Assembly (NCBI GenBank): GCA_041586955.1
Contig: JBFGZE010000003.1
Location: 34,855 to 98,854, forward strand
Direction: 5' to 3'
From: Bacteriovoracaceae bacterium
Lineage (GTDB): Bacteria; Bdellovibrionota; Bacteriovoracia; Bacteriovoracales; Bacteriovoracaceae
Length of the DNA stretch: 64,000 bases
Position 1 is the first letter of the stretch. Every line of letters begins with the position of its first letter. Shown here piece after piece: positions 4,379 to 52,585 of the stretch. The notes under the pieces are model-generated. The model was not told the DNA's origin. It made no database searches and worked only from the letters and a program-made list of their open reading frames with translations. A program made the position numbers and the translations under genes.

Positions 4379-5146
4379 TTGATGGAATTATCACAGAGAA
4401 TTTTAAAACGAGCACAAACGCCACTATATCTAGAATCGACAGTCGAAAAAGAGGCCTTCCTGGCGGAAAAACGCCCCCATTCTTTTTCAACATCTGTGGA
4501 GACCAAAAATGATGGGGAAATTACCCTCTTCGGATTGATTGATGAAAATCAGGTGCCTCCTCAGTTTTTGGCGATTAAATATACAGGAAACCTTAAACAA
4601 GAGGTTTTGGCCTTAGTCGATGTCTTTGTTGAATTCTCAACAGGAAAAGATATAAGAGGAATTAAGGCACTCTCTCTAAGAGAGATAGATAGTTTTTTAC
4701 GAGACAATAACCTCCATTCGGCCTTCCCTGAAAATAACACAAACCTTTTAATACTTTTTGACCAATTAAAAAAGGCCCTGGAAAAAGTCATTGAGGCCGA
4801 TGACCAAAGGCCAGCTGGTGAAAAGATCTCGCCAACCATCAACAGAGACTATAAAAACAAAGGTTCTTATTATCCTTATAATAATAAGAATAACTATCAT
4901 GATCTTGACCAGGGAGAAAAGGCCCAATTAATTGCTCAGATTATTGAAGATCATATCGCCACCCCTTTAAGTCGAGATGGTGGAGGAATATATTGTGTTT
5001 TTACCGATGATAATTTAGTGGTGATAGAATACTTAGGGGCATGTCAGGGTTGTTTATCATCCTTGACCACCACAATGAATTTCATTCAAAGGGTTTTCCA
5101 ATTGGAAACCGGTGCCCCTGGTATTCTCGTTATGACAGATTCTTAG
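4379..5146 (+). CDS. Protein with C-terminal NifU/NfuA-like Fe-S domain
   Basis: 'LSRDGGGI...YLGACQGC' NifU-C signature at C-terminus. Confidence 0.75.
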   Translation: MMELSQRILKRAQTPLYLESTVEKEAFLAEKRPHSFSTSVETKNDGEITLFGLIDENQVPPQFLAIKYTGNLKQEVLALVDVFVEFSTGKDIRGIKALSLREIDSFLRDNNLHSAFPENNTNLLILFDQLKKALEKVIEADDQRPAGEKISPTINRDYKNKGSYYPYNNKNNYHDLDQGEKAQLIAQIIEDHIATPLSRDGGGIYCVFTDDNLVVIEYLGACQGCLSSLTTTMNFIQRVFQLETGAPGILVMTDS

Positions 5147-5168
5147 ACAATGGCATCGATAGTTGCCA

Positions 5169-5654
5169 TTAATTTTTTTCTTGGGCATTTTCAAATAGTG
5201 GCAACATAATCAAGTCACCATCACCATGAACATCATTTATCTTCTCTGCCATTTTATAAAGAATATTGTTCTCTTTATCGATATGCTCCAATAATATTTG
5301 AGCATATTCATAAACATAAATTTTAAATTGCTCCCACGACTCTTCGTCACCGCCTTGGACTTTTTGTAGTGTTAAACTGGCCCTATCGACAATTTCCCGG
5401 CTCTTGTCGTGCTCTCCTAGCATACAGCGAAGAGGCCCATTTTCAAGATCCGGTTCTTTAGAGCGCATCCATAAGAAATAAATATCTTCTTCCTTAGCGT
5501 GATGATAATCATCAGCGTAACTTTTTAAAAAATGAAGAAAGGTCGTCCAATACTTCAAATCATGCCAATTTTCAGTGTCTAAAAAGCGCAGGGCATCGTT
5601 AATCGTATTGGAAATAACTTGATGCTCTTCTTTAAGAATTTCTGTCGCTTTCAT
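5169..5654 (-). CDS. Hemerythrin/HHE cation-binding domain protein
   Basis: EEH..., HHAKEE...LF, EH..., HIDKEN...LY motifs; 1 nt downstream of narK-doxX. Confidence 0.9.
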   Translation of the reverse strand: MKATEILKEEHQVISNTINDALRFLDTENWHDLKYWTTFLHFLKSYADDYHHAKEEDIYFLWMRSKEPDLENGPLRCMLGEHDKSREIVDRASLTLQKVQGGDEESWEQFKIYVYEYAQILLEHIDKENNILYKMAEKINDVHGDGDLIMLPLFENAQEKN

Positions 5655-5655
5655 A

Positions 5656-7425
5656 TCACTTCCTCTGAGAGTTTAAAACATAATCTAAGGAGAACTTGCC
5701 ACTACCTGCCCAACTAAATGCCGCTAAACAAACCAACACTAATAAGGAGAATTGAAAGTCCTGGCCATGGGATAACATGCCATCCACCCCATGAATGAAA
5801 AATGTGGCACCAAATAGAACAGGAAGGTTCAATACGGCAAATGTCCGTGTGGCAAAACCTAGTAACAAGGAGATCCCTCCGGCAATATGTGCGAAAATCA
5901 CGTACCAACTGGTGACATTTTGAAAATGCCCCATATGGCCAGTCATACTTTCAATCGTCTGCATATTGAGGATGAAATAGATTCCCTTAATCGCCAATGC
6001 CCCCCCTAAAAAGACTCGTAACATATCGAGGGGGTTAAAAGTGGTGAGAAAATCTGGAACAAGACGAGGTCTCCCTTCTTTACTGCCTTCGTAAGCTGCA
6101 TCAATGGCAGCTTGCGTACGAACGGCTTCATCGTGAGCGAGTTTTGCGGCCTTCTCTTCAGCGGTCGAAAATGTAACAAAAAGAGCTGCAAAAGAAAATA
6201 AAAGGACTAATACTCCCAGGATAAGAAGTGCCTGTGGCCAGCTTAACTCAGGGGAGCGAAAAAGAAAACCTGCTCCAACCGCTCCCATATTACCGCCAGC
6301 ACCAACAATACCTGATACAGACCCAAGTGCTTTTTTATTAATAAAAGGAACAACGGAATAAGTCGCCCCCTCAGACATTTGCACGAAAAGCGAAAAGATC
6401 ACCATGGTGCCGATCGCGACGGGGAGAACTTTAACTTGAGAAAATATAATAAGAGCGAAACCTTCTACAACAAGGGCCATAAATAACCAGCGAACCCTTC
6501 CCTTAAGTCCCCATTTATGTCCAAACTTATCCCCAATAATTCCACCTGTGGTACGGGCAAAAATATTCATGAGTCCAAAAAGTCCGGCGACAAGACCAGC
6601 TGTTTTAACACCGAGTCCGAAGTAATCTTTATAATAAAGAGCGGCAATATTATTGAGGGTCAATTCAATACCAAAGCTAGCCGCGTAAACCAGAAATAGC
6701 ATCCAAACACGATGATCTTTACAGGCATCCATGAAGGAACCACCATTTTTGGAAAGTTTCTTACGAGCAGCAGTAATGCCAAGATCCTTATAATTCCCAT
6801 CTGGTAAATCAGTTGTTAAAAAATAATAAGCGACACCTGTAAGCATACAAACACCACCCGCCACAACCATGGATAATCGCCATGACCAAAAGGTGGAAAC
6901 ACCCCAACCAACAAAAGATGCAAAGACGATAGGCATCACCATTTGAGTAATGCCTCCACCAAGATTCCCCCACCCGGCGGAGGTCGCATTCGCCGTACCG
7001 ACACAATTGGGAGCAAACATAACGGAAGTATGAAATTGCGTGATCACAAATGCGGCACCGATGGCACCAATACCTAGCCGAAATAAAAGGAAGGTTTCAT
7101 AAGAGTTAGCAAACCCAATTCCCATGACAGGTAATGACCCAAGCATAAGTAACCAGGTATAACATAAACGCGGACCAATTTTATCACATAACCAGCCAAT
7201 AAAGAGTCGGGCCAGGATGGTAATGGAAACCGACGCAATAATAGTGTTGCCAATTTGAGTTTTAGTTAAATGCAATTCGTCTCTAACAATCGCCATGAGA
7301 GGAGCAATACCAAACCAGGCGAAAAAACAAAGAAAGAAGGAAAACCAAGACATGTGAAAGGCACGCATCTGAGGTGTTGAAAAGTTAAAAAGATCAATTC
7401 TCGTTGCTTTGTTTTTAATTTCCAT
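5656..7425 (-). CDS. narK: Nitrate/nitrite MFS transporter (NRT2/NarK1-like) fused to C-terminal DoxX-family domain
   Basis: 'MRAFHMSW', nitrate signature 'AGWGNLGGG', 'GIVGAGGNMG'; residues ~465-589 'LRVFLGG...AHIAGG.SLLLGF.TR...GSGKFSLD' are DoxX-like. Confidence 0.9.
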   Translation of the reverse strand: MEIKNKATRIDLFNFSTPQMRAFHMSWFSFFLCFFAWFGIAPLMAIVRDELHLTKTQIGNTIIASVSITILARLFIGWLCDKIGPRLCYTWLLMLGSLPVMGIGFANSYETFLLFRLGIGAIGAAFVITQFHTSVMFAPNCVGTANATSAGWGNLGGGITQMVMPIVFASFVGWGVSTFWSWRLSMVVAGGVCMLTGVAYYFLTTDLPDGNYKDLGITAARKKLSKNGGSFMDACKDHRVWMLFLVYAASFGIELTLNNIAALYYKDYFGLGVKTAGLVAGLFGLMNIFARTTGGIIGDKFGHKWGLKGRVRWLFMALVVEGFALIIFSQVKVLPVAIGTMVIFSLFVQMSEGATYSVVPFINKKALGSVSGIVGAGGNMGAVGAGFLFRSPELSWPQALLILGVLVLLFSFAALFVTFSTAEEKAAKLAHDEAVRTQAAIDAAYEGSKEGRPRLVPDFLTTFNPLDMLRVFLGGALAIKGIYFILNMQTIESMTGHMGHFQNVTSWYVIFAHIAGGISLLLGFATRTFAVLNLPVLFGATFFIHGVDGMLSHGQDFQFSLLVLVCLAAFSWAGSGKFSLDYVLNSQRK

Positions 7426-7454
7426 AATGGCCTCGACTAACTCAAAAAATTAAA

Positions 7455-9053
7455 CTAAGGATTCTTATAATCTGCTTTTGGCCCTAAGTAATACCACCAA
7501 TTGATTATGGCACAGAGGGCGTAAAATACAGCAAAACCATAAAGAGCATATTCAGGAGTTGTCGCCTTAATCTGCTCACCAAACACTTTAGGAATAATAA
7601 AGGCCCCATAAGCGGCCACAGCAGAAGTCCATCCCAGTACAGGTCCTCTCTGCTCTTCATTAAAAATCACAGCAATAGTCCTAAAGGTCGAACCATTACC
7701 AACACCGGTCGCTGTAAATAAAAGGAGAAATAATAAAAAGAAAGGCATAAAGTAGACTTCCGGTGTTTCAGAAATATAAGCAGCATGCATATAATGAGCA
7801 ACGCCAAGTGACGCCACGACCATAGTGATAGCACAAATTTGAGTAACAAGAGCTCCACCAAACTTATCCGAAATCTTGCCACCAATAGGACGAATAAGAG
7901 CGCCAATAAATGGGGCCAACCAAGCATATGCTAAAGCTGAAGGCCCGTTGGGGTTGATGATAGAGTGATCAAACCCTCCTCCTGCAGTGGCAACATGCTT
8001 AAAACCAAAGATAACTTTAATCGCCAAAGGGAAGGCAGCAGAAAAACCAATAAAAGAGCCGAAAGTCATGGTGTAGATGACAGTCATAACCCAGTTATGC
8101 TTATTGCCAAAAATCTTATATTGCCTGGTTAGTGATTCCTTTAATTGACCGGGTGAAAGAAACTTCATTAAATTGACGGTTAATGCAATAACTAGGGGCA
8201 AAACAATCCACTTAGAAACGCCCACCTTCAATAAAAGAACCAGTCCAATAATCGCGGAAACAAATCCTAAGAGTAATAGCCATGACATTTTAGCAATAGC
8301 GCCGGCGGTAGAGCCCAGGTCTGGTGAAACCACTTCATTTTTAATATTATTCATTTTAAAAAATGCTAAAACGGAAGTCACAATTAAGATGGGGACCCAT
8401 ATAAAACCAGCATTATGAATAAAGGACATTTCACCTGCGGGAATTTTACCAATTAATGAACCACTTGGTTTGATAAGTTCCATTGGAACGCCACCAAATA
8501 GCCCAAAAGTCATCACTAAGGGAACTAAAATCTGCATCGTGGTCACACCAAAATTACCGAGTCCGGCATTGAGCCCGAGTGCCATTCCTTGAACTTTTTT
8601 TGGATAGAAGTAGGAAATATTACTCATGGAGGAGGCAAAGTTTCCGCCACCAATCCCCGATAAAAGGGCCAAGATCTGGAAAACCCATAAAGGAGTGTTT
8701 TGATCTTGAAGAGCAAGGCCGACCCCAAGAGCGGGTAAAATTAAAAGTGCCGAAGTAAAAAAGATAGTGTTCCGGCCACCACAGGGACGAATAAAAAAGG
8801 TGCTCGGGATACGAAGAGTGGCGCCAGTCAACCCAGCAATCGCCATTAGCGAAAATAATTGCGCTTTTTCAAATGGGAAACCCACATTAAGCATTTGAAC
8901 TGTAATAATGCTCCATTGCAGCCAAATGGCAAATCCACATAAAAGGTTGGGAATAGAAATCCATAAATTCCAATTCGCAATAGATTTACCTTTTGATTCC
9001 CAAAACTCAGGGTCTTCGACCCGCCAATCCGTTAAATCTCTATTACCTGCCAT
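7455..9053 (-). CDS. narK: Nitrate/nitrite antiporter (NarK2/NarU type)
   Basis: 'WRVEDPEFW', 'NLWISIP', 'GGGNFASSMSNIS', 'GLNAGLGN', 'TFGSFIGFS', 'GNGSTF'. Confidence 0.95.
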   Translation of the reverse strand: MAGNRDLTDWRVEDPEFWESKGKSIANWNLWISIPNLLCGFAIWLQWSIITVQMLNVGFPFEKAQLFSLMAIAGLTGATLRIPSTFFIRPCGGRNTIFFTSALLILPALGVGLALQDQNTPLWVFQILALLSGIGGGNFASSMSNISYFYPKKVQGMALGLNAGLGNFGVTTMQILVPLVMTFGLFGGVPMELIKPSGSLIGKIPAGEMSFIHNAGFIWVPILIVTSVLAFFKMNNIKNEVVSPDLGSTAGAIAKMSWLLLLGFVSAIIGLVLLLKVGVSKWIVLPLVIALTVNLMKFLSPGQLKESLTRQYKIFGNKHNWVMTVIYTMTFGSFIGFSAAFPLAIKVIFGFKHVATAGGGFDHSIINPNGPSALAYAWLAPFIGALIRPIGGKISDKFGGALVTQICAITMVVASLGVAHYMHAAYISETPEVYFMPFFLLFLLLFTATGVGNGSTFRTIAVIFNEEQRGPVLGWTSAVAAYGAFIIPKVFGEQIKATTPEYALYGFAVFYALCAIINWWYYLGPKADYKNP

Positions 9054-9076
9054 AATATTTCCCCTCTTCTAATATT

Positions 9077-10270
9077 TTATTGGTGTAAATGTATTCCTTC
9101 TTTTAAGTAAGGGTCGTTCACGGCAACAAGCTTCACTCTTTTTAAATCGCGCGCGATAAAAAGAGCAAAGAAACAACCAAATCCCACGGCCATCCCCACT
9201 TCAATTAGGCCAATCTGAGGATTAGTCACACCGGAATGGCCATAAACATCTGGCGCAACCATCAGGTATAAATCAAGCCAACGACCAATAATCAGCAAAA
9301 TACAAACACGCGATAAGATAAAGCGGCTGCGCTTAGCATCCCTTGTCATTAAGGCAAAGAATGGAATGATCCAATTGATGGCAAAATTAAAATAGAATAA
9401 CCAATCCCAAGTATGTTTTTCTCGGGAGATATAATAAAGAGTTTCTTCTGGAATGTTTGAGTACCAAATGAGGAGATATTGGCTAAGCCAGATATAGGCC
9501 CAAAATGTAGTAAAAGCAAAAATAAACTTACCTAAGTCATGAAGATTATGATCGCTAACTGCGCCCTTTAAATAACCTCTCCCTTGTAGCCAAATCACCA
9601 TAAAAGTCACAGTGGCAAGGGCACTAATAAACATACCCGAAAAATTTTGGATACCATAAATAGTGCTATACCAATGGGGTTTTAAAGACATTAGCCAATC
9701 AAATGAAGCGAATGAATAAGTCAGTGCATAGGACACAAGAAAAATCGAGCTCCACTTGATGACTTGAGTGGTATGACTAGTCGAACCATCATCATCTTGT
9801 TTCTGTGAATAGTATTTGATCATTTTGCTGGTGACAATCCAAACGACAAAAAAGATCACCATGCGAATCATAAAAAAGGGCGTATTAAGATAGGGCGTTT
9901 TAGAGCGTAGGATTTCATCCTTTAAAACCAGATCGTGATGAGTCCATTCATAAAGAGAATGAAGTCCAAAGAAAAGTCCTAGCATCAGAATAAACCCAAC
10001 TGGTAAAAATACTGTTAACGATTCTGACACTCTTTTAAACGGAGCTCCCCAAGCGGCATTTGAAACTGAGGCGATCGCTACAATAAGAGTTCCCCCTAAA
10101 GCGAGAGAAACAAAGTAAACAGAATTGACGAGATAGTTAATCCACATCCTCTGTCCGTCGGTAATAATCCCCCAAACGGTACAGAGAACACCCAATAAAA
10201 CACCGAATAAAAGAAGCCCTTGAGTCTTTGAGCTAAATTTAAATTCCTTTTGATTGATTTCCATTTTCAT
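9077..10270 (-). CDS. actF: Alternative complex III subunit ActF
   Basis: ~10 TM NrfD-paralog; 'DWLMSL.PHWYST', 'HDLGKF', 'QYLLIWYSNIPEET'. Confidence 0.9.
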   Translation of the reverse strand: MKMEINQKEFKFSSKTQGLLLFGVLLGVLCTVWGIITDGQRMWINYLVNSVYFVSLALGGTLIVAIASVSNAAWGAPFKRVSESLTVFLPVGFILMLGLFFGLHSLYEWTHHDLVLKDEILRSKTPYLNTPFFMIRMVIFFVVWIVTSKMIKYYSQKQDDDGSTSHTTQVIKWSSIFLVSYALTYSFASFDWLMSLKPHWYSTIYGIQNFSGMFISALATVTFMVIWLQGRGYLKGAVSDHNLHDLGKFIFAFTTFWAYIWLSQYLLIWYSNIPEETLYYISREKHTWDWLFYFNFAINWIIPFFALMTRDAKRSRFILSRVCILLIIGRWLDLYLMVAPDVYGHSGVTNPQIGLIEVGMAVGFGCFFALFIARDLKRVKLVAVNDPYLKEGIHLHQ

Positions 10271-10286
10271 TATCTCACTCTAGAAG

Positions 10287-10844
10287 TTATTTTTTCCTAT
10301 AAGTTTCTTGAATATAATTCACATATTGCACAAGAAACCAACGGTCTTTAGAATTAATCTGCTCCTTATGAGATGGCATATCACCAGAACCTTCTGTAAT
10401 AATGTGATATAAGCGACCATCTTCATACTTCAATAAGCGCTTCGCCGTTAATGAGGGAGGATTGGGAAATTTAGGTATTAAAGGGCCATCCCCTTTACCT
10501 TGGACCCCATGGCAGGCCAGGCAATAATTTGTATATAGAGACCGTCCTCTTTCCAGACCTTGCTTGGTTTCTGCAAAGGGATTGACCAATTCCTGACCTG
10601 CTCTTTTTGCTTCTGCCTCACCTTTCCCATAGGGAAAAGGAAGTTTATTCCGAGCAATCGAGCCCTCTGGTGGTAATTGATTGGTTTTTCCATCGGCCAT
10701 GATACTGTTTTCAGAATAGGCCTCATAACCTACGGAATGCACCATGTCGGGAAAAATCTCAATACCTGTTTCATCAGGATTACGACTACATCCGCTACTA
10801 ATTAAAAGTAAGGTCACAATAATATAAATTCCAACTTTATCCAT
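10287..10844 (-). CDS. actE: Alternative complex III mono-heme cytochrome c lipoprotein ActE
   Basis: Lipobox SSGC, 'PDMVHS', 'PPEGSIAR', single CLACH, distal Met (GDMP). Confidence 0.9.
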   Translation of the reverse strand: MDKVGIYIIVTLLLISSGCSRNPDETGIEIFPDMVHSVGYEAYSENSIMADGKTNQLPPEGSIARNKLPFPYGKGEAEAKRAGQELVNPFAETKQGLERGRSLYTNYCLACHGVQGKGDGPLIPKFPNPPSLTAKRLLKYEDGRLYHIITEGSGDMPSHKEQINSKDRWFLVQYVNYIQETYRKK

Positions 10845-11361
10845 GATTCACAACCTCACTCGCGCCATGTTTTTTCATAATAGTGCTAACTTGATCGAAG
10901 TCGATGGCAGCGTTATTATGTTCAATGGCCAGAACAAAACTATAATTGGTCATATTCGCATCTAAGATGGTTTCTTTTTTCCCTGGGAATAATCCACAAC
11001 GATATAAGAAAAAGGCCACTGTAATAAGGGCACCCATCAATACTGTAATTTCGAACGCCACAGGTATAAAAGCGACAAAAGAATTAAATGGCTTACCACC
11101 AATATTCAAGGGCCAACTATATTTCGATGTCCAAACTTGGAAATAAATGGCCACAAGGCAGCCAAATAGACAGGCGAAAAATGTAATAATTGGTAATCGC
11201 GAACGCTTAATTTCTAATAGCTCATCCAACCCATGCACAGGAAAGGGGGTATAGATGTCGAGAATCGGTATATTATAATCTCGCAAGCTTTTCCCGGCCT
11301 CGATCAAATGTTCCTCGTCTTCAAAAACGCCAAAAATTAATTTCCGGTTAGCATTTTTCAT
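10837..11361 (-). CDS. actD: Alternative complex III subunit ActD (DUF3341)
   Basis: '[10 protein letters not shown]', 'WPLNIGGKP', '[11 protein letters not shown]'; start trimmed to MKNANR. Confidence 0.92.
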
Positions 11362-12724
11362 TTTTATTCCTTGCAAATTTCAATACTGTTTTAACCTCAG
11401 CTACGTTGATAGCTGGGAGAAAGCGGACAAAAAGTAAAAATAATGTAAAGAAAAGTCCAAAGCTTCCTATAAAAGTGATCACTTCAATTTTTGTTGGTGA
11501 ATAACTCGCCCAGCTTGAGGGTAAATAATCCCGATGTAGTGAGGTGACAATAATCACAAATCGCTCAAACCACATGCCAATATTAACAATAATGGAAAGG
11601 ATAAAAACGGCTGCCACATTCGTTCTTATTTTTTTAAACCAAAAAAAGTGGGGAGAGATAACATTACAGGTTACCATAATCCAATAGGCCCAGCACATGG
11701 GCCCAGTCGCACGATTGATAAAAGCATATCTCTCATATTCATTACCTGAATACCAGGCGACAAAGAATTCTGTCATATAGGCCAGAGATACAAACATCCC
11801 AGTTAAAAGAACAATCTTGCACATCGCCTCAATATGGCCCATGGTAATGTAATTTTCAAAATTCATCACCTTACGGGTAATGATCAATAAAGTTAATACC
11901 ATTGCAAAGCCAGAAAAAACCGCACCTGCCACAAAATAGGGTGGCAAAATAGTAGTATGCCAGCCTGGTATAACCGAAGTCGCAAAGTCAAAAGAAACAA
12001 TGGTATGAACTGAAACAACCAATGGAGTGGCCAACCCTGCTAAAATAAGACATAGCATTTCATAACGATGCCAAGTTCGATGAGACCCGTTCCACCCAAA
12101 ACTAAAGAAACGGTATATACTCTTTTTGATGCCAGTCTTTGCTCTATCCCGCAAGGAAGCGAAGTCAGGAATCATCCCAACATACCAAAAGACCGCAGAA
12201 ACAATAAAGTAGGTACTAATGGCAAAAACATCCCATAATAATGGTGATCTAAAATTAACCCATAAGGTTCCCCGCATATTAGGATAGGGAAAAACCCAAT
12301 GAGCAAGCCAAGGACGCCCCATATGGATAATAGGAAAAATACCGGCACACATGACCGCAAAAATGGTCATCGCCTCTGCGGCACGGTTAACCGACGTTCT
12401 CCACTTTTGACGAAATAAAAGAAGAATGGCAGAGATCAAAGTACCTGCATGGCCAATACCAACCCAAAACACGAAATTGGTAATATCCCATGCCCAGCCG
12501 ACGGTTTTATTAAGACCCCAAGTTCCTATGCCATAAATGATCTGATAGGAAACAGCTGCGATTCCCATAACCAAGGCACAGATAGAAATTGAAAGACCAA
12601 TATACCAAAGCTTACTTGGTGAGCCCTCAACAGACTTAAAAACATCGTCAGAAATCTCTTTATATGATCGAAACTTCGTTATAAGAGGATTTCTCAATTT
12701 TGAAGTATGCGTATCTGCAGACAT
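11348..12724 (-). CDS. actC: Alternative complex III quinol-oxidising subunit ActC (NrfD/PsrC family)
   Basis: '[18 protein letters not shown]', 'NRAAEAMT', 'HMGRPW', 'SPLLWD', '[10 protein letters not shown]'. Confidence 0.95.
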
Positions 12725-12729
12725 ATATC

Positions 12730-15666
12730 CTACCCCTTATTCCTTACTTTTGTGAGATAATTAACCCTCGGTTGAATATTTAATTCCTCGAGTAGTCGGT
12801 ATTTTCTTGCATTTTTTAATAGGGTCGAGATTTTACTTTTTGGATCGTTTAAATTACCAAAAACAATCGCATCCCCAGGACAACTTTGCTGACAGGCCAA
12901 TTGGATATCTCCGTCTTTAAGCGGGCGTTCCTCTTTTTTGGCGACAAGTTTTGACTCTTGAATACGTTGGATACACATCGAACATTTTTCCATAACCCCA
13001 CGTGATCTCACTACGATGTCAGGATTGAGCACCATATTTTCGTATTTATCATCATGTGCATAATCAAACCAATTGAAGCGCCTTACTTTATAAGGACAAT
13101 TATTGGCACAATAACGAGTCCCAACACAGCGATTATAGACCTGCTGATTAAGTCCATCAGAACTCTGCACGGTGGCAATGACTGGACAGACAGTTTCGCA
13201 AGGAGCGTTATCACAATGCTGACACATAATGGGCTGATGAACGACTTCAGGATTTTCTTCATCACCTTTATAATAGCGGTCAATTCGTAACCAATGCATC
13301 TCACGACGACTATGAACTTCTTTCTTTCCAACAACTGGTACGTTATTTTCAGCGTTACAAGAGATAATACAGCCCGAGCAACCGGTACATTTATTAAGAT
13401 CTATGGCCATGCCCCATTGCTCACCACTTTGATCGTGCTTACCCCACATCGAGACAAGCTTAATTGATGGTTTATTACCGGCATGGTTATCGACCTTCCA
13501 TTCCTTTAATGTCGTTTCACGAACAATATCTCGTCCCTCCATTGAATGATGGGTTTGAGTCAAGGCCATCTCCCTTTTTTCAGGGGTTATATCAACCTTA
13601 ACGTCTGTCGCAATATTATTAAAAGAACCATTAGAAAATTGAACGAATGGAAAGGCATTCCCACCAAGATTTTTGGCAACTTTCCCCGCCACGCTGCGAC
13701 CGTACCCGTAGGCAACCCCAATCATATTTTCGCGTACTCCAGGCTGCACAATAATAGGAAGTACTAAGGTAACTTTATCTGTCGCAACCTTGATAACTTG
13801 ACCTGTTTTTAAGTTTTGTTTTTTAGCGTCAATGGGACTAATAAGAAAGTAATTATCCCATGTCGCTTTGGTTATCGGGTCGGGTAATTCCTGTAACCAA
13901 GGATTATTGATCATATCCCCCGCGCGCATGCCTACCTTTTGGTAACCAATTAAAGTCATGCCTTTATTTAGAGTTGCCTTCACAAGACGTGCATAGGAAA
14001 GGGCCACTACATTTTTTGCAAGATCTGATTTTTTGCTAAGTGAAGAATTCATTAATGAGAGTCCGTCATGGACGGTATGATTCCAAAACTCATGAAACAA
14101 CATTTTTTTTGTTTGCATTTTGAAGAATTTAATCTCTGCATTTTTCTTGAGAAAATCATAGTATTTAGTTGTTGAACCTGCCAATTTTAATAATGTCTCT
14201 TGCGCCATACGCGAACCAAACAATGGCTGAATAACAGGTTGAGAGTAAGTGAGAACATTAGGCGCTTGAAAATAATCATCCCATGACTCAAGAAAATGAT
14301 TCATCGGCAACACATAATTACACAAGACTGAGGTTTCATCATCAGCGGAGGCAAACGAACATCTTGTCACAACTTTTTTCAATGCCTTAGTAAAACGTTG
14401 AGTGTCGCGATAATGATAGGCCAAATTCGTATCCCAAAAAAGAACCGCTCCTATTTCTCCCGCCTCCATTGTAGAAATCAAGTCTTCCGTTTCTTGATCT
14501 TTTGGCCCTTTAAAATAAGGATTCTCATAAAGATCAATCGTTTCACCATAATTATCAAGAAGTGAATTCAAAGCATTAACCATGATTTGAATATCTTTAT
14601 TTTGTGATCCGGAGAGAATGACGGACTTTCCTTTTTTCTCCCATAACTCACCGGCAATTTGACTAACAAGCTCACGATTAGTACCAGGCAATTGTTGACC
14701 TGGAGGTAATAACGAGCGTCCGGCCTTTCGCTGTATCTCAGCGAGGAGATTTATGATAAAACTTTTTTCCTCCTCGGGCGTAACACTGAAGCGTTGATCA
14801 GCATTACTACCAGTAAGAGTCATTAATGATTCAAATTGGTAATGTTTAGATAAGGTATTATGAATTGTTAAATCCCTACGGGATGTATATTGTTTTGTGT
14901 ACTCTACTGGAGAAAGCCATGTTCCTAAAAAGTCTGCGGAAAAACTGACAATGAGATCGGCCCGATCTAAAGAAATCGTTGGGTAAACGGCATTAGAAAA
15001 ACATTCCTCGTTCGCCCTTAAAATGGCACTTTGAGAAGTTGGCTCAAATACCACATGATCGAAATTTGAATATTTCTCCTTCAGTTGCGCAATGATATCA
15101 AGAGTAGAAGGGCTAGAAATTGTTCTCGTGACTAGAACGATCTTTTTTTCCTTATCATTAGCATTATTTAAGGCCGCCTCAAGTTTCTTATCAATATTGG
15201 CCCATTCGATAGGTTTGCCATCTAATAGAGGACCTTTAAAACGTGAAGAATTATAGAGAGAGAGAACACTGGCCTGATCAGTCCCGAAAGTTCCTCCTTT
15301 AGTAATAGGAGAAAGACTATTCCCCTCAATCTTTATCGGTCTCCCCTCCCTTGTTTTGACTAATAAGGAGCTTCCCTTCATTGGATCCATGCTGGTGGCA
15401 TACCAATTGGCGACACCAGGAGTCACCTGATCAGATTTATAAAGGTAGGGAATAGCTTTTTTGACAGGTATTCGCATACAGGAGGCGAGAGGTATCGCGG
15501 TAAAGGAAAATCCCATCACTTTTAAAAAGCTACGACGATCTTTTTTAATACTTCCGATATCAAATTGAAGTTCCCCTTCACCAAACTCAGATTTTAAGTG
15601 CTCAGGATCTAAAACTTTGTTTTCAACATCTTGCCAATAGGTAGTGTTATTTTTTTTCATTTTCAT
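12730..15666 (-). CDS. actB: Alternative complex III subunit ActB (molybdopterin-oxidoreductase-like + Fe-S fusion, Tat lipoprotein)
   Basis: Twin-arginine 'RRSFLK' + lipobox LASC, '[10 protein letters not shown]', '[13 protein letters not shown]', C-terminal Fe-S motifs [27 protein letters not shown]. Confidence 0.95.
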
Positions 15667-15688
15667 GGTCCCTATTCTTACTTAGCTC

Positions 15689-16237
15689 TTAATAATGGCA
15701 TCTAGCACAATCTCCGCCGGCCCTACTTTTATGATCATCTGGCGCGGCAATATTATTTTGACGATGGCAATCTAAACACCAGCCCATATTAAGAGCATTT
15801 TCTTGCTTTAAGCGAGTCATCGTCTCTACCGGGCCATGACATTCTTGGCAGGAAATCTTACCCACCCGAACATGTTGACTATGATTAAAATAAGCAAAAT
15901 CAGGAAAGTGATGAACTTTTTGCCATTCAATCTTTGCACCACCTGCAACCGCATCTTTAATCTTTTTAATTTCTGGCGAATCTTTTCTAATTTGATTGTG
16001 GCAATTTAAGCAAAGCTCTGTTGGTGGTATCCCAGCATGCCTCCCCTGCTCGGCGCCAAAATGGCAGTACAAACATTGAATTTGATTTTCACCAGCATGA
16101 ATTTTATGAGAAAAATTAATTGGTTGCTGGGGTTCATAATCAACATTAAAGTTCACCATTCGGGCTTCATAGGTAAAGGCGACAGAAACCCCAATGACAA
16201 TCACCAAACATATTAAAAAGATAAGTTTATTTTTCAT
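15689..16237 (-). CDS. actA: Alternative complex III penta-heme cytochrome c ActA
   Basis: N-terminal TM, 'PQQPINFSHKIH', five CxxCH (CLYCH, CLNCH, CQECH, CLDCH, CARCH). Confidence 0.92.
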   Translation of the reverse strand: MKNKLIFLICLVIVIGVSVAFTYEARMVNFNVDYEPQQPINFSHKIHAGENQIQCLYCHFGAEQGRHAGIPPTELCLNCHNQIRKDSPEIKKIKDAVAGGAKIEWQKVHHFPDFAYFNHSQHVRVGKISCQECHGPVETMTRLKQENALNMGWCLDCHRQNNIAAPDDHKSRAGGDCARCHY

Positions 16238-16248
16238 ATTCCGGCCTA

Positions 16249-16938
16249 TTAAAATCTATTACGTTTCTGCTTTCTGTCATCATTCCAAATCACGACTTGC
16301 CATGAGCGCCAAATATAATGGATAGGAAGTACTAAAAAGTGTAATAAACGAGTAAATGGAAGTACTGCAATAATAAAAAAGGCATTTGCCATATGAAGTT
16401 TAACTGGCCATGGCATCGCCGAGACATACTGCATATCAGGGCTAAAGGAGAACAAGGACCTTAAATAAGGCACCATTGAAGTGGCATACCAATTAAATCC
16501 CCAACGATAATTAATCGCGGTCAAAACCCCTGTTAAAACTTGGACAAGAAGTAATAACAAGATAAAAATATCCATGCGGCTTGTGACGACCCGAACTCGT
16601 TTATTCTCAAATCTTCTTCGTATTAAGACAATGAGGCCAAAGAGTGCCATCAATCCAAAAATAAGAGAAAAGACTTCAATGACAAGGAGTCTCCAGGGGA
16701 CACTACCAAATGCAATCATTTCGCGGGGAAATAAAAATCCTAAAAGGTGGCCTGTCAGAACGACGATGATACCATAATGCCAAGGAACTGATCCCCAAAA
16801 TAAGTGGTCACTCTCTAGAAATTCAGAGGACAAGGAAGTAAACCTATAGCTATTTGTAAAATACCTAGTTAGTGAAACCACCAGCATGACCGTCAAGGCG
16901 ACGTAAGGAAAAATAACGAAGAGAAATAAATTTAACAT
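16249..16938 (-). CDS. narI: Respiratory nitrate reductase gamma subunit (cytochrome b)
   Basis: 'FPYVAL', 'TSLSSEFLE', four heme His (WHYG..GH; KLH..PFTRLLH). Confidence 0.95.
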   Translation of the reverse strand: MLNLFLFVIFPYVALTVMLVVSLTRYFTNSYRFTSLSSEFLESDHLFWGSVPWHYGIIVVLTGHLLGFLFPREMIAFGSVPWRLLVIEVFSLIFGLMALFGLIVLIRRRFENKRVRVVTSRMDIFILLLLLVQVLTGVLTAINYRWGFNWYATSMVPYLRSLFSFSPDMQYVSAMPWPVKLHMANAFFIIAVLPFTRLLHFLVLPIHYIWRSWQVVIWNDDRKQKRNRF

Positions 16939-17477
16939 ACAGGTCCTCCAAAAATGGTTCGATCTATTGTATATTCCGTCTTAAACACAGATTCGATGGC
17001 CCTTAGGACATTCGAGTAAAAGTTATTAGCGGTTAGTTCATTTTGAAAATTTGACAGCATTTTCTCTAAGGCCGGTAAAAGAATCTTTTCAGATAATTCT
17101 TTTTTGTCGTCCTCATTGATTACTGACATTAATTTTAAAAAGTTAGTGAGGTGATCAGGAAGTTCAACTCCTGTTTCAACATTATTCTCTTTTTGTAGTC
17201 GCTGAATATTGACCAAAAACTCACCTCGTTTATAATCTTCTCCAAAAAGAACATAACCTATGTCTAAACAACACAGACCTTTAATATCAAAAGTTCGAGT
17301 GTAGATTTCCTCTAGTTCATCTAAGTCTTGCTTGTTGACATAATCCTCAAAGCCTAATAATAGCTTTGATGCCTCGGGATATTGATCTTTCATCTGATCA
17401 ATTCCAGATTTTAGGGACGATTTGAAATCAGCACGTGGATAATCTGAAATCGTTGATAGGATTTGATAGGCGTCCAT
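16932..17477 (-). CDS. narJ: Nitrate reductase chaperone
   Basis: 'YTRTFD', 'FGEDYKRG', 'ELPDHL'; between narH and narI. Confidence 0.9.
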   Translation of the reverse strand: MDAYQILSTISDYPRADFKSSLKSGIDQMKDQYPEASKLLLGFEDYVNKQDLDELEEIYTRTFDIKGLCCLDIGYVLFGEDYKRGEFLVNIQRLQKENNVETGVELPDHLTNFLKLMSVINEDDKKELSEKILLPALEKMLSNFQNELTANNFYSNVLRAIESVFKTEYTIDRTIFGGPVC

Positions 17478-17479
17478 CG

Positions 17480-18970
17480 TTATTTCACCCTTTTTGGTTT
17501 CTCATTAAAACCAAATCCAGTTTCACCCTTATGCTCAAGAACCATTTTGGTCATTTCAATTGCTTCTTCACGATGGGAAGGAGGAATCACAAACCTTTCT
17601 TCAAATGTACATAGGGAAGACAATTTAAAGACATCATCTGCCATTTTAGCGGTCAGACCAGCTTCATTGAGAGAACCGACGGCATGCTCACCGGGCAAGT
17701 CCCCAACGGTCTCACTACGACGATGGATTCTTACGGCCATTAATTTTTTAAGGATATCTCGAACACGACCTTGGTCACCTGCAGAAAAGAGACTCGCCAA
17801 ATACTTAATCGGTAAGCGACAATCGTCGATGCTGGTAAAATATGTTTGTTTGGCGTGATCATAAAGATTATCTGTCACATTACCCATAATTGGTAAAAGA
17901 GGTGGAACATAAAATAGCATGGGAACAGTTCTGTGTTCAGCGTGTAAAGGTAATGCCAATCCCCATTCTTTGACCCATTTATATACTGGTGACTTCTGTG
18001 CTGCTTCAATCATTGAATCAGCAATTCCATTCTTCTTACACTCTTTAATGACTTCAGGGTCAAAAGGATCGACGATGGCATCCATTTGGGCATCAATTAA
18101 TTTATCTTCGTCCATATGAGCAATTTCTTTTATTTTGTCGGCGTCATAAAGAAGAACACCTAAATAACGAATTCGTCCGACACACGAGTGAAAACATGCA
18201 GGTGCTTCACCAACTTCGAGACGAGGGAAGCAGAGAATACATTTCTCTGATTTACCGCTGGCCCAATTATAATATGTCTTTTTATAGGGACAAGCTGTAA
18301 CGCACATTCTCCAAGCACGGCATTTTTCTTGGTTAATAAGAACAACACCATCCTCACCTCTTTTATAAATTGCTCCAGATGGGCAGCTGGCAAGGCAAGC
18401 AGGATTTAAACAATGATTACAAATACGGGGTAAATACATCATTACCAAACGTTCTAGCTTAAACATCTCTTCTTGCTCTTGTGCTGTTAGAGCAGAGAAA
18501 TTTGGATCGTTTTTAGCGTAAATTTCAGAACCGCCTAAATCATCATCCCAATTGGGGCCTGATTTGACCTCAATTTGCTCACCTGTAATAAGTGATATGG
18601 GACGGGCCGTTGGTTGATCATTTCCTTCTGGAGAATCGATTAAGTCTGAATAGGTATAAGTCCATGGTTCATAATAATCTTCAATGACAGGCAAATTAGG
18701 ATTATGAAAAATATTTTTTAGTCCTCTAAATTTACCGGCACCTCGAAGGTTAACTTTACCACCCTCTTTTATCCAGCCACCCTTATAATCGTTTTGATCT
18801 TCCCAGCGATACGGATAACCCGTTCCAGGCTTTGTCTCAACGTTATTCCACCACATGTACTCCGCGCCTTTGCGATCAGTCCAAAGGTTTTTACAAGCAA
18901 TGGAACAGGTATGACATCCGATACATTTGTCGAGATGAAAAACCATTGAAATTTGCGATTTAATATCCAT
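17480..18970 (-). CDS. narH: Respiratory nitrate reductase beta subunit
   Basis: 'LDKCIGCHTCS', 'WWNNVETKPG', 'PRICNHCLNPAC', 'CPYKK', 'CVGRIRYLG'. Confidence 0.98.
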   Translation of the reverse strand: MDIKSQISMVFHLDKCIGCHTCSIACKNLWTDRKGAEYMWWNNVETKPGTGYPYRWEDQNDYKGGWIKEGGKVNLRGAGKFRGLKNIFHNPNLPVIEDYYEPWTYTYSDLIDSPEGNDQPTARPISLITGEQIEVKSGPNWDDDLGGSEIYAKNDPNFSALTAQEQEEMFKLERLVMMYLPRICNHCLNPACLASCPSGAIYKRGEDGVVLINQEKCRAWRMCVTACPYKKTYYNWASGKSEKCILCFPRLEVGEAPACFHSCVGRIRYLGVLLYDADKIKEIAHMDEDKLIDAQMDAIVDPFDPEVIKECKKNGIADSMIEAAQKSPVYKWVKEWGLALPLHAEHRTVPMLFYVPPLLPIMGNVTDNLYDHAKQTYFTSIDDCRLPIKYLASLFSAGDQGRVRDILKKLMAVRIHRRSETVGDLPGEHAVGSLNEAGLTAKMADDVFKLSSLCTFEERFVIPPSHREEAIEMTKMVLEHKGETGFGFNEKPKRVK

Positions 18971-19015
18971 AATTTATACCTTTCTATCCTCATTCCTTTA
19001 TTTAACGACCAAATT

Positions 19016-22000
19016 TTACCAATCAACCTTATCTAATTTGCGGACCAAGATATGAGTATCTCTATTGACCCCAGTCGGCCCCCAATAATTAAAATGATAA
19101 GTAAATTGAGCATAACCGCCCATCATCAAATTCGGTTTCAAATGAACTCTGGTAAGAGAGTTATTCATACCCGCTCGGCGATTTCCTCGACTAGGGGATT
19201 TTGGAGTCCCATAAGTCCTTTCCGTTGCGTGATAAACAATACAAACACCTGGCGGAATACGAGCACTCACGTTGGCCCGCGTGACAACAACACCATTATC
19301 ATTAATGACTTCCACATAATCATTGTCTTTAATGTCTAATTTGGCCGCATCCTCAGGACTCATCCAAAATGGCTCTGCTCCCCTAGAAAGAGTCAACATG
19401 CGAAGAGTGTCACCATAGGTCGAGTGAATATGCCACTTCCCATGAGGAGTTAAATAATTGAGACGTAAACAATTTCCTTCAGGTTTAGTAACTCGAAGGT
19501 CTCCATAGGCTTCAGGGCTCGGCGATGGTTTATACGTTGGTAAATTCTCACCAAAGGAAATATAGCCTTCATGATCTAAATACAGACTTTGACGACCGGT
19601 TAACGTTCTCCAGGGAACCATACGATCGACATTATAAGTAAAGGCGGAATAAGTTCGACCATTTTCAATAATGCCCGACCAGATAGGACTTGAATGAAGC
19701 CTTTTTGGTGCCGCCTGAATGTCCTTAAAGTTCATTCTCACGCCTCTATTTTTTTCCGCGAGATCCTTTAATTTCAGTCCTGTTATTTTTTCCATCCCCT
19801 CGTAAGCACGGTAGGCCAACTCGCCATTAGTCTCTGAAGCAAAGGCCAAAATGGTATTACAAACATCATACCCATCTTCTAATGAGGGATAGGTATTGCC
19901 ATCAAATTCATGAGTCGTTTGCGTTTTCATGCGCTCATCATACATATCAGAGATATCGTATTTTACACCATGGGCCCCAATGCCGTTATTACGAGCGTTT
20001 GGACCAAATGAGCAAAATTTGTCATAAATCTTGGTATAATCTCTTTCCGTAACCACTAATTTATACATCGACTTACCAAGTTCGGGCTCACATTCACCCT
20101 TCGCCCAGTCTTTAATGCTCGGTTGAGATAATTCATCAATTGTATCGTGTTGCAATGGAACTGAGACGATGTCTTTAACAGGTCCTGTGAAGTGCTTTTT
20201 CGCAAGCTCTGAGGTAACTTTAGCAATACTTTTAAAGGTATCCCAATCTGACTTTGACTCCCAAACAGGAGGGATGGCCTTGGCCAATGGGTGAATAAAA
20301 GTATGCATATCGGTGGTATTTAAATCAAATTTTTCATACCAAGAAGCCGCCGGTAAAACGATATCAGAATAAAGAGCACTAGTGTCCATTCTAAAATTGA
20401 TATCGACAACTAAATCCATTTTTCCAGTAGGAGCTTCTTCATACCACTTAATCTCTTTAACAGAGTCCTTGGCACATTCAGGAGCGATCTTATTGGTATG
20501 TGTTCCTAGATAATGATTAAGGAAATATTCGTGTCCCTTAGCTGAGGTGCCGATGGCATTTCCACGCCAAATATACCAAACTCTGGGAAAACTTTCTGGC
20601 GCATCAATATCCTCAATCGCCGGTGTAATTTTCTTATTAACGACCTTATCAAATACAAATTTCTTGATATCGTCATCTGTAGAAGCCCCCCCCTCTTGTG
20701 CCTCTTTACAAAGGTTAAGGGAGTTTTCTTTATACTGAGGATAAAACGGAAGCCAACCATTTCTGACCGCCTTCGCATTAAGATCGGCCGTATGGCCTTT
20801 TGAAATAGGATCTTCTTCAGGAGACGCATTGATCTCATTATAATCACCGTCATAACGCCATTGATCTGTATGCATATAATGCCAAGATGGCGCGTTTTGT
20901 AAACGAACCGGAGCTTGCCAATCTTTTGCAAAGGCAATCGCTCCCCATGGTGCAGCTGGTGCTAGTTTTTCCTGACCAACATAATGGTTTAGGCCACCAC
21001 CATTTTTTCCGACACAACCGCAAAGAATAAGAGCATTTTGAGCGGCCCGATAAATTAAATTATTATGGTACCAATGATCGATCCCTGCTCCGATGATGAC
21101 GGAACATTTCCCTTCAGTGGAGGCCGCAGTATTGCCCCAATCTCTCGCAAAATTAATGACCGTTTCTTGACCAATTCCGGTGAAGCGCTCTTGCCACGCA
21201 GGAGTATAAGAAGCCGTTTCATCATTATAATCACTGGGGTAATCACCAGCTAACCCTCTACCGACTCCGTATTGCGCCATTAATAAATCGTATACTGTTG
21301 TGACAGGAACTTTTTTTCCGTCATTCGTTTCGATATAGCGAACAGGAACACCTCGTTTATAATTATTGTCTAAACCAAACTCGGTAAATTCAACCTGCAA
21401 TACTTCATCATGATTATTTAAAAGAGTTAAGCTGGGATTAATTGGACTATCATCGAGAGTATCCTTTAACTCAAGGTTCCATTGCCCCTTTTTCTCTTGC
21501 CAGCGATGCCCCATGGTCCCCTTAGGCATTTTAAGTTCATTCGATTCCTCATCGAGAACAAGAAATTTCCAATCCCCATGTTCTTCTTGGGCATATTTAT
21601 CGACTCTACCAGCTCTTAAAAAGCGCCCTGGCCTAAAACCACCATCCTTTTCGGTGACTTCTACTAAAAATGGGTTATCTGTATATTTCTTTTGGTAATC
21701 CATGAAATAGGGCGTTTGCTTTTCATGGTGAAATTCCTTCATAAGGACATGAACAACAGACATCCAAAAAGCGCCATCTTGCCCAGCGTGAACAGGAACC
21801 CATTCATCACCAAACTTCGCTACCTGATTAAAGTCCGGAGAAAAAACCGTCACCTTTGTGCCATTCATCTTCGCTTCAGGAATAAAATGGCAATCAGGTG
21901 TTCTAGTCATATTTAGATTGGCACCCATGATGGCAATCATCTTGGAATTATACCAATCAGCAGATTCACCAACATCAGTTTGCTCACCCCATGTTTCAGG

Positions 22001-22633
22001 AGATGATGGAGGTAAATCGCAATACCAATCATAAAAAGATAAACAGACACCACCCATCAATTGAAGAAATCGGGCACCTGAAGCATAACTAATTTGTGAC
22101 ATGGCAGGAATTGGAGAAAATCCTGTAATTCGATCCGGCCCATGATTTTTTACGGTATAAATATTAGAAGCGGCAATCAATTCCAACATTTCATCCCAGG
22201 AGGCCCGTCTAAATCCTCCCTTACCACGCGCCTTTTGATAGCGCTTACGAGCAGAGGGATTATCCTGAATCGATTTCCAAGCGTCGACAGGGTCTTTATG
22301 TTGCTTTTTGGCATCTCTCCATATATCGAGTAGAGCGCCTCTCACATAGGGGTACTTAATACGAATTGGGCTATAGAGATACCAACTAAAGGAAATCCCT
22401 CTTTGACAGCCACGTGGTTCATACGGTGGAATTTCGGGGTTTATGATGGGATAATCAACGGCCTGTAATTCCCAGGTGACAATTCCATCTTTTACGCAAA
22501 CATTCCATGAACAACTACCCGTACAATTCACTCCGTGGGTAGAACGAACAATTTTATCATGTTGAAAGCGATTGCGGTAAAACTCTTCCCACAAACGTGC
22601 TTTTGGTGAAACAATATCGTCAATCCAACTCAT
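19016..22633 (-). CDS. narG: Respiratory nitrate reductase alpha subunit
   Basis: '[13 protein letters not shown]', 'EPRGCQRG', 'GFSPIPAMS', 'FYDWYCDLP', 'TPHGKW.IHS'; no Tat signal. Confidence 0.98.
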
Positions 22634-22653
22634 ATATAGTCTCCTAGACTTTT

Positions 22654-23448
22654 TTAGTCTCGAAATGGTCTTCGTGTTTTTTTAATTCGGCCTTTCCATA
22701 AAAGATCAAAGGCACCCAGTACTAATAAGAACCCGATGATTCCCAAAAAGAAAAATTTCTTTTTGTGGCCGTTATCAACTTTTTTAGCGCGATCAACGCT
22801 CCATAAATAGGACTTGATTTGATAGGCCTCATCATCTGTCAGGGGGTTTTTCTTATAGAGACGAACCATTGTAGGAAAAGAAACGTTACGAATAACCTTC
22901 GATAGTCCTTTGTCATTATAGCTCGTATAAACATTTGTCAGATCTGGACCCAGTCCGCCGCCACCTAGCAATCCCGCTTCACCTGCACTATGGCAGGATA
23001 AGCAAGAAGGACCGCCATTTTTCAAGCGAGTCGCCCCAGTAAATAAATTTTTACCTTGGTCAATTTCAAAGTCGTTGGCGCTGAGGGCCGATCTTAATTT
23101 TTCTACCGCGGACTTAACCTTACCACTATCAATATAGGCAATAAGCTCTTCCGCCTCGGAATCATCCAACTCTTGGTCAGGCATCTTCTTTCTTTTGTAT
23201 TTCACGAATAATTCGTTAGCGATAGGATCACCCTCTTCAATCATAGACTGGGATTCTTGAATAAAGCGGATAAGCCATTTCTTATCCCGTTTCTTTGAAA
23301 CCCCCTTTAAGTCGGGTCCAACATCGTCACCTTGTCCAACGGTATGGCAACTCATACACTTCTGTTGAAAATAAGTGGCGGGTTCAAAAGCAAGTAAGGG
23401 CGTTAACCCTAGCAAACACAGTAAAATAAAAAGGAAACGATCCTTCAT
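22654..23448 (-). CDS. Membrane-anchored di-heme cytochrome c (NarC-like)
   Basis: Signal peptide, two CxxCH (CMSCH, CLSCH) each followed by GPDL, C-terminal TM; first gene of nar operon. Confidence 0.85.
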
Positions 23449-23546
23449 AATGATCCTCTTATTAATAATTGAAGTTCACAAAAAGTAATTAATACTAAAT
23501 TAACGACGCTCACCCGTTTTCAACATGCCATCAATAAGCAAAAAAT

Positions 23547-23560
23547 GTGATAGTTCTCAG
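23547..23560 (-). promoter_or_regulatory. Crp/Fnr-type palindrome upstream of nar-act operon
   Basis: GTGATAGTTCTCAG (TGA-N6-TCA); -10 match is weak here (CATGTT at 23527-23522). Confidence 0.5.
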
Positions 23561-23649
23561 GTTGAATTTTTACGGCATCAATAAATCTTGTTGATACAAT
23601 TCTATAGCTTTTTTTAGGGGAATTTATGAAAGAGGAGAGGACTAGAAGT

Positions 23650-23699
23650 AAAAAATGCCTTCTGCCCCCTCTACAAAAGGCTTTGAGGAAACAAAAGGC
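23650..23699 (-). terminator. Rho-independent terminator after feo operon
   Basis: Minus strand GCCTTTTGTTTCCTC-loop-GAGGGGGCAGAAGGC (15-bp stem with G:U pairs) followed by A-T6. Confidence 0.7.
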
Positions 23700-24008: not shown

Positions 24009-24033
24009 TTTTTCTCCTATCTTCTCTATTGAA

Positions 24034-41309: not shown

Positions 41310-41310
41310 T

Positions 41311-43127: not shown

Positions 43128-43128
43128 C

Positions 43129-45287: not shown

Positions 45288-45289
45288 AT

Positions 45290-45385: not shown

Positions 45386-45391
45386 CTGCAA

Positions 45392-45562: not shown

Positions 45563-45649
45563 TTTGACTCCTTAACATTTTTCTTCTGCAGCAATAACCA
45601 ATCAAAAGACTTGTCAATTTGATTAGAGTGTACAGAGAAGATACAAAGC

Positions 45650-52577: not shown

Positions 52578-52585
52578 GGTAACAA

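Follow-up and report, generated by a model that had tools for sequence, protein, structure and literature searches.

Organization of the nar-act operon

We observed that the window (the whole stretch analysed here, 64,000 nucleotides of contig JBFGZE010000003.1 from a Bacteriovoracaceae bacterium, assembly GCA_041586955.1) carries a nitrate reductase operon in which the six genes of an alternative complex III (ACIII) are embedded. The operon has 14 genes at 5169-23448, all on the minus strand, in the order narC-narGHJI-actABCDEF-narK-narK/doxX-hemerythrin (Table 1). Distances between successive genes range from -29 to 45 nt, with 11 nt from narI to actA and 23 nt from actF to narK. A terminator scan returned 27 hairpins against 17.3 expected; none of these lies in the gaps between the 14 genes, and hairpins flank the operon at 23681-23657 upstream and at 5149-5170 at the downstream end. 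No oxidase gene was found among the 14 (actF is followed by narK), and the oxidases of this genome are on contigs C24 and C55. The original prediction, made from the sequence alone, had described 14 co-oriented genes with overlaps or gaps of at most 45 nt, actA placed 11 nt past narI, narK after actF, and neither an internal terminator nor an oxidase gene; our coordinates and scans agree with each of these.

Table 1. Genes and features of the nar-act operon and its flanks (window coordinates)
Feature	Position	Strand	Basis
narC, membrane-anchored dihaem cytochrome c with C-terminal membrane helix	22654..23448	-	two CxxCH, Thermus homology, domain profiles, model
narG, catalytic Mo subunit, cytoplasmic type	19016..22633	-	TIGR01580, 1509 bits
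narH, Fe-S subunit, 496 aa short form	17480..18970	-	TIGR01660, 663 bits
narJ, chaperone	16932..17477	-	position; TIGR00684, 40.6 bits, under cut-off of 59.35
narI, dihaem b anchor	16249..16938	-	TIGR00351 above cut-off; alignment to 1Q16_C
actA, short penta-haem form without mobile mono-haem domain	15689..16237	-	five CxxCH; PDB matches
actB, Tat lipoprotein	12730..15666	-	15 Cys, clusters three [4Fe-4S] and one [3Fe-4S]; solved ACIII chains
actC, NrfD-type quinol-oxidising subunit	11348..12724	-	6BTM_C, E 1.8e-201
actD	10837..11376	-	PF11821, 178 bits
actE, mono-haem lipoprotein cytochrome c	10287..10844	-	one CxxCH
actF, ActC-like membrane subunit	9077..10270	-	position (same in all relatives shown) and weak ActC match
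narK-family nitrate/nitrite transporter	7455..9053	-	NF011608 and TIGR00886, both under cut-off
narK-family transporter fused to C-terminal DoxX domain	5656..7425	-	TIGR00886, 303 bits, just under cut-off; PF07681 at 468-546
hemerythrin-domain protein	5169..5654	-	PF01814
NifU-like protein, convergent with operon	4379..5146	+	PF01106
likely promoter region, from hairpin 23681-23657 to narC	23449..23681	-	position

Nitrate reductase and ACIII subunits

NarG, NarH and NarI all scored above their NCBIfam cut-offs, and both NarK proteins fell just below that of TIGR00886. NarG has an HxxxCxxxC motif at residue 33 together with FS0 and Mo-site motifs, and no twin-arginine signal was seen (no RR within the first 50 residues). 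The NarI haem ligands H54, H64, H182 and H200, along with R83, are invariant in 59/59 rows; R83 aligns with K86 of E. coli NarI (alignment to 1Q16_C), which we take to be a quinol-site residue. The features of NarG and NarI are those of a respiratory NarGHI, and the genome context points to the nitrate-reducing direction.

ActA, ActB and ActC match the chains of solved ACIII structures (6BTM, 6F0K, 6LOD and 8K9E). The distal ligands of ActA (H44, H47, H119, H122 and M151) are invariant in 23/23 rows, giving four bis-His haems and one His/Met haem, as in the penta-haem pattern of the available passages of PMC5928083. ActB has the 15 cysteines of the usual four clusters, a Tat motif (RRSFLK) and no FS0 motif; it gave no PF00384 or PF04879 match, i.e. 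no cofactor in domain B1. In ActC, the quinol-site and channel positions (H134, S160, D165 and D246 among 11 checked, from the list in the available passages of PMC8076601) are invariant in 61 rows, and C19, the haem motif and M156 of ActE in 22 rows. Judged by their cofactor and quinol-site residues, both machines appear intact. The complete ActA-F set of the original prediction therefore holds, with the genes in order and ActF, which gave no family match in NCBIfam or Pfam searches, assigned by position and weak similarity to ActC.

In NrfA, the catalytic haem is bound by a CxxCK motif and has an open distal site. The available passages of PMC10732223 propose, for similar clusters, that the product of the six genes reduces nitrite to ammonium and is a new enzyme of NrfAH-like type. 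The presence of Nar would suit such an enzyme, as would the fact that nirK, nirS and nrfA were not found in the window genome, whose assembly is 88% complete. We nevertheless consider this very improbable, since the five CxxCH motifs and five distal ligands of ActA are invariant in the 23 rows without any CxxCK site, the subunits match solved ACIII along their length, and none of nine ActB proteins gave a PF00384 match over the cut-off.

The FS0 motif was found in ActB of 21/27 nar-linked relatives, 0/18 oxidase-linked and 2/14 stand-alone copies scored. We evaluated an extra FS0 cluster as the defining mark of nar-linked ACIII and rejected it, as the window copy is without one; a Mo site in FS0-bearing ActB was also rejected, with no PF00384 match over the cut-off in the eight scored. 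Separately, locus L146 (3301-8400) holds a second ActA/B/C/D-like cluster in divergent orientation, in which the large subunit has FS0 and molybdopterin domains over the cut-off.

The NarC cytochrome and its predicted docking to NarI

NarC has two haem domains, at about 24-110 and about 125-222, the second corresponding to the Thermus NarC core; Met89 and Met194 are invariant in 59 rows. It shares 29% identity with its Thermus homologue, the cytochrome whose gene precedes narG, named NarC in the available passages of PMC7694296. With the domains as separate profiles, domain 2 found Thermus NarC at 106 bits. Domain 1 gave a different result: it matched the mobile domains of ActA at up to 101 bits and domain 1 of Thermus NarC at only 8 bits, so that the latter would be a different cytochrome family. 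The domain 1 profile also matched the cytochrome encoded before the genome's own nosZ (71 bits), and a PDB sequence search matched NarC to 6BTM_A (E 3.6e-10). These scores place NarC domain 1 in the family of the mobile mono-haem domain of ActA. In Flavobacterium johnsoniae, the mobile domain is the proposed shuttle from ActE to cytochrome aa3 (available passages of PMC8552683). Among the matches listed, it was present in 1/33 ActA of nar-linked loci versus 68/69 of Bacteroidota loci. The homology of NarC domain 1, the ActA mobile domain and the nosZ-linked cytochrome offers a concrete docking hypothesis.

A structure model of NarC with NarI scored 0.68, against 0.00 for the best of three controls, in predictions for which the docking mark was calibrated as one reached by 116/157 solved and 2/215 mismatched pairs. 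The runs share at least 86% of contacts, and the partner pLDDT is at least 77. In the modelled interface, domain 2 and the membrane helix of NarC meet the periplasmic loops of NarI, including an invariant W146/G147/W150 motif, and domain 1 contributes no residue. The prediction is thus that haem domain 2 and the membrane helix attach NarC to NarI and leave haem domain 1 free. PDB sequence searches found no solved NarC-NarI complex. NarC looks built to wire Nar and ACIII together, and the earlier suggestion that ACIII feeds NarC and NarI gains support from the domain profiles and the docking model. We also noted a 595-aa NarC variant with six haem motifs (L221, 17999-19800), in a genome where ActD was not found.

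Distribution of the nar-act linkage

In a sample of 201 genomes of the class, narI was over the cut-off in 14 and ActD was found in 43, including 14/14 of the narI genomes. The narI gene lies directly before actA in 11/14, probably Bacteriovoracaceae (in G077 split over two contigs), with gaps of 3-39 nt in 10 relatives. An assembly artefact is ruled out by the identical order in 10 other genomes of the class. In G181, actA-F of a different ACIII lineage lies directly before narC, so that linkage is seen in 12/14 narI genomes, 11 in the window order and one reversed; in G086 and G197, nar and ACIII are apart.

In a sample of 351 genomes of the phylum, the cytochrome profile matched 19, of which 15 lie outside the family: five show narI-actA (in two other families), three are unlinked, six are cut by contig ends and one is a non-nar locus. 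A further 351 genomes of the phylum Bacteroidota gave 17 NarC loci. Seven of these have a complete actA-F after nar (reached through two narK genes in six and directly in one), seven are unlinked and three are cut. Among 80 metagenome loci, 32 reach narI and at least 10 of these show actA next (one duplicates G077), a lower bound as the loci extend at most ~3.6 kb past narI. When the loci were approached from the side of ACIII, nar beside ACIII was found in 0/80 loci among the ActC matches listed, almost all of them from Bacteroidota. These counts show spread and not rate, because related genomes are not independent. We conclude that the nar-act module is real, conserved and widespread. The synteny search that the original prediction had named as its test therefore came out in its favour, with the arrangement recurring in the class, in other families, in Bacteroidota and in metagenomes. 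Its description as a dedicated module is too strong, as 15 relatives carry ACIII of the window lineage by itself, with no nar.

A FastTree of 64 NarG sequences (rows L218 and L229, labelled unlinked, are actually cut by contig ends) puts linked loci in four or more clades and requires five changes; one clade of 21 rows has no linked locus. A long NarH (514-518 aa) marks a NarG clade without any ACIII-linked locus, and NarH of linked loci has 492-500 aa. Could the ACIII genes be a passenger that entered the nar operon and has since been passed on as part of it, with no functional link between the two? The loss of linkage in G086, G197 and the 21-row clade would fit this. We consider it quite unlikely, even so, as gaps of 3-39 nt are kept in 10 relatives, the catalytic residues have not decayed, and linkage is spread over two phyla and four or more NarG clades, one case being reversed and involving a different ACIII lineage.

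We also placed ActC relative to oxidase-linked ACIII, as the original prediction had proposed. In a careful tree of 33 of the 62 rows, the oxidase-linked Bacteroidota formed a clade of their own (100/100) and the window ActC fell outside it. Nar-linked Bdellovibrionota grouped with stand-alone copies (90/87), and nar-linked Bacteroidota formed a group (93/83), again outside the oxidase-linked clade. A quick tree had put all nar-linked ActC into one clade with support of 92; we do not claim this clade, because the careful tree left three groups unresolved.

Other complexes III and electron acceptors in these genomes

The window ACIII is the only one found in its assembly. The original prediction had set against itself the case of a sole ACIII expressed constitutively with the oxygen reductase; a sole ACIII is what we found, but a separate Rieske/cytochrome b cluster accompanies the aa3-type oxidase, which argues against that case. 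This cluster (G000:C24:10707-16594, L005; G000 is the window genome) comprises a Rieske protein, a split cytochrome b and a 945-aa octahaem cytochrome beside the aa3-type oxidase genes. A Rieske-type cytochrome b is present in 11/12 linked genomes of the class (the window genome and 10/11 linked relatives), a second ActD in 5/7 linked Bacteroidota, and G147 holds both a nar-linked and an oxidase-linked ACIII. From these gene contents, the linked ACIII is usually a second complex III, additional to the aerobic one, although the lineage can evidently be the main one.

Elsewhere, the window genome encodes a cbb3-type oxidase, a qNOR-sized reductase, a NapA-like enzyme and nosZ (subtypes by size and sequence). 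Behind the NapA-like gene come genes for a pair of tetrahaem cytochromes, an Fe-S protein and a subunit of NrfD type (G000:C56:13773-19728, L008), apparently a second nitrate reductase with a quinol-oxidising module of its own. The genome thus has two nitrate reductases, a qNOR-sized enzyme and nosZ, yet no nitrite reductase was found. For menaquinone synthesis, menB is present; the futalosine family PF02621 was looked for and not found.

The original prediction had alternatively proposed that ACIII supplies periplasmic nitrite and NO reductases. This fits poorly, given that nirK, nirS and nrfA were not found and the NO reductase is of quinol-type size; NosZ is still a candidate. We found nosZ in 9/24 linked genomes and none in the other 15. 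In 6/12 linked genomes of the class, none of nosZ, nirK, nirS and nrfA was found; two of these six have a cNOR-sized or similar haem-copper protein. The operon of G076 (99% complete) matches that of the window up to and including hemerythrin. A single haem-copper enzyme was found in this genome, and none of napA, nosZ, nirK, nirS and nrfA.

Several side observations concern nosZ and the stand-alone ACIII. In L248 and L254, Rieske-cytochrome b-penta-haem cytochrome-nosZ immediately precedes narC-narGHJI-narK-narK-actA-F-moaA. This denitrification island combines two kinds of complex III, with nosZ accompanied by Rieske/cytochrome b genes of its own. Tandem nosZ-like genes, one of ~780 aa, occur at G116:C38:113797-117418, G130:C7:293089-295666 and G123:C15:255386-258323. 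The stand-alone ACIII and a gene for 360-390 aa are divergently transcribed in L110, L111, L114-L116, L119-L121, L123 and L125, with a JmjC domain in the two tested. A free DoxX gene, possibly a narK/doxX remnant, precedes stand-alone actA in L122 (4180-4620) and L124 (4153-4600).

Proposed electron route and energetics

NarGHI takes electrons directly from quinol and moves two charges per nitrate. With the nitrate/nitrite potential near +430 mV, it wastes much of the ~0.5 V on offer from menaquinol, and haem bD of E. coli NarI is at about +20 mV. Pairing with ACIII could raise this energy yield.

The reading that we favour, though with slightly less than even confidence, is that electrons pass from quinol through ACIII, NarC and NarI to nitrate in an anaerobic-respiration operon. 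The operon would then join a nitrate reductase of four subunits and NarC type to an ACIII of its own. Menaquinol would be oxidised at ActC, and electrons would travel via ActB, ActA and ActE to NarC domain 1, which would replace the mobile domain absent from the window ActA. From NarC domain 2 they would reach nitrate by way of the NarI haems, NarH and NarG. Whatever protons ACIII may pump would come on top of the two charges that the Nar redox loop moves. Direct quinol oxidation by NarI probably continues, so that the route over ACIII would be an additional entry point, with a higher yield, beside the direct one. The available passages of PMC5928083 give, for Rhodothermus marinus, -70 mV for menaquinol, -45 to +230 mV for the ActA haems and +165 mV for ActE. 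We estimate that, at normal proton-motive force, the potential span is enough to move about four charges for every two electrons. If the route is true, nitrate respiration would conserve energy in a new manner, with complex III placed in series. ACIII, which in its solved examples works with oxidases or in photosynthesis, would gain in NarCGHI a first defined partner for anaerobic life. More speculatively, ACIII and NarCGHI may form a nitrate-respiring supercomplex, an anaerobic counterpart of ACIII-aa3 in which electrons from quinol would leave at ACIII, traverse the periplasm on NarC and return to the membrane at NarI, with ~twice the usual charge translocation, and an old module of several phyla; this stronger version we regard as doubtful.

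A number of points weigh against the ACIII-NarC-NarI route. The hard step is energetic, as transfer from ActE (+165 mV) to haem bD would run uphill. NarI keeps its quinol-site residues and therefore needs no ACIII. The short ActA occurs also in caa3-type, oxidase-linked ACIII. Many NarC loci are unlinked, and 3/31 NarC genomes show no ACIII. Cytochrome b was not found in 11 of the 15 genomes with stand-alone ACIII (most of the 11 in one clade), and the lineage can therefore serve oxygen reductases; haem-copper enzymes are present in 42/42 genomes scanned, every linked genome tested included. Since the nosZ-adjacent cytochrome shares the domain 1 family with NarC, it is an equally plausible ACIII acceptor, and 7/8 nosZ genomes of the class have the window ACIII lineage. 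Finally, the NarC of Thermus is considered to lead electrons away from Nar to the outside (available passages of PMC7694296).

Several of these points would also fit co-regulation without a direct wire, in which NarGHI takes quinol and an anoxia-induced ACIII loads periplasmic cytochromes for NosZ, NirK/NirS, cNOR or high-affinity oxidases. We regard this as the main rival and a real possibility: besides the intact quinol site, the stand-alone copies and the ACIII-acceptor family of the nosZ-adjacent cytochrome, it draws on the nosZ genes of the nine linked genomes and on the sharing of this ACIII lineage by the nosZ genomes of the class. It sits less well with the 15/24 linked genomes in which no nosZ was found, with the six of 12 without nosZ, nirK, nirS or nrfA, and with another complex III, able to do the job, in most linked genomes.

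We also considered flow in the opposite sense, where NarI feeds NarC and the periplasm as in Thermus, or where, as in Nitrobacter, NarC receives electrons from nitrite oxidation, with ACIII working backwards to reduce quinone. The homology of NarC to the Thermus protein, the Nitrobacter comparison in the available passages of PMC7694296 and the extra FS0 motif in ActB of 21/27 nar-linked relatives are consistent with this. It seems unlikely to us, since the genome context is reductive (napA-like, qNOR-size, nosZ, nnrS and hemN genes), a neighbouring ACIII would be redundant if NarC led outward, and the window ActB has lost FS0.

Comparison with known systems

The ACIII of F. johnsoniae (6BTM) and R. 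marinus (6F0K) share with the window copy the six subunits, their order and the haem, Fe-S and quinol-site residues. In contrast to known ACIII, the window actF is followed by narK and not by an oxidase, and most nar-linked relatives, though not the window copy, keep an FS0 motif; unlike the F. johnsoniae ActA, that of the window is without the mobile domain. In the narCGHJIKT locus of Thermus thermophilus (heterotetrameric NarCGHI), a dihaem cytochrome precedes narG, followed by the rest of GHJI and a transporter, as in the window, and NarI is 39% identical. The Thermus locus that was fetched has no ACIII, however; Thermus NarC has been proposed to replace complex III, whereas the window NarC sits beside one. 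Haloarchaeal pNar, as generally understood, is encoded with a Rieske/cytochrome b pair (NarB/NarC); its NarG is outside the membrane and without NarI, whereas the window NarG is cytoplasmic with an intact NarI.

The available passages of PMC10732223 describe a six-gene NrfD/ActD cluster downstream of nar in 13 instances from Planctomycetota- and KSB1-affiliated metagenome-assembled genomes. By description, these clusters resemble the window in having penta-haem, Fe-S/Mo-like, NrfD, ActD, mono-haem cytochrome and membrane subunits, and the part of the supplement searched held nothing bearing on them. This 2023 paper, as far as its available passages go, reported the nar-act arrangement under other gene names without recognising ACIII. 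The original prediction knew of no characterised example. Reading the genes as ACIII corrects the annotation of a kind of cluster that had been taken for a new nitrite reductase. The operon is not described in the available passages of PMC7694296, PMC10609526, PMC8076601, PMC8552683, PMC5928083, PMC5317091, PMC10390337, PMC6338057 and PMC8301774, a search confined to open-access literature. The novelty of the window is that two known machines are paired, and the wiring hypothesis put forward for them is specific and testable.

Neighbouring genes

The narK/doxX fusion has an equal length in L094, L095, L096 and L106, and the hemerythrin gene a matching place in L094 and L106. The NifU-like protein is probably an accessory of the nar-act module, because its gene lies directly 3' of actF or the narK genes in relatives L091-L093, L097-L100, L106 and L112. 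FNR control of the operon was considered and rejected: the best box matches 8 of 10 positions and was equalled by 36% of shuffles, and perfect FNR boxes occur in 2/23 relatives only (L209 and L215).

A 130-aa open reading frame without a family match (23727-24119) is kept beside the operon in L094, L095, L097, L103, L106, L107, L130 and L131. Further along, a molybdenum cofactor cluster at 39784-48323 (moeB, moaE, mob-like, moaC, moaA and moeA, labelled by sequence reading) stands back to back with nnrS and hemN; molybdenum cofactor genes, nnrS and hemN adjoin the nar-act operon in L091-L093, L259, L260 and L263. At 50144-56698 and 58491-60791 we noted anaerobic ribonucleotide reductase-like, modABC-like and SulP-like transporter genes and a second hemerythrin (all labels but hemerythrin being tentative), so that the window as a whole resembles an anaerobiosis-rich region.

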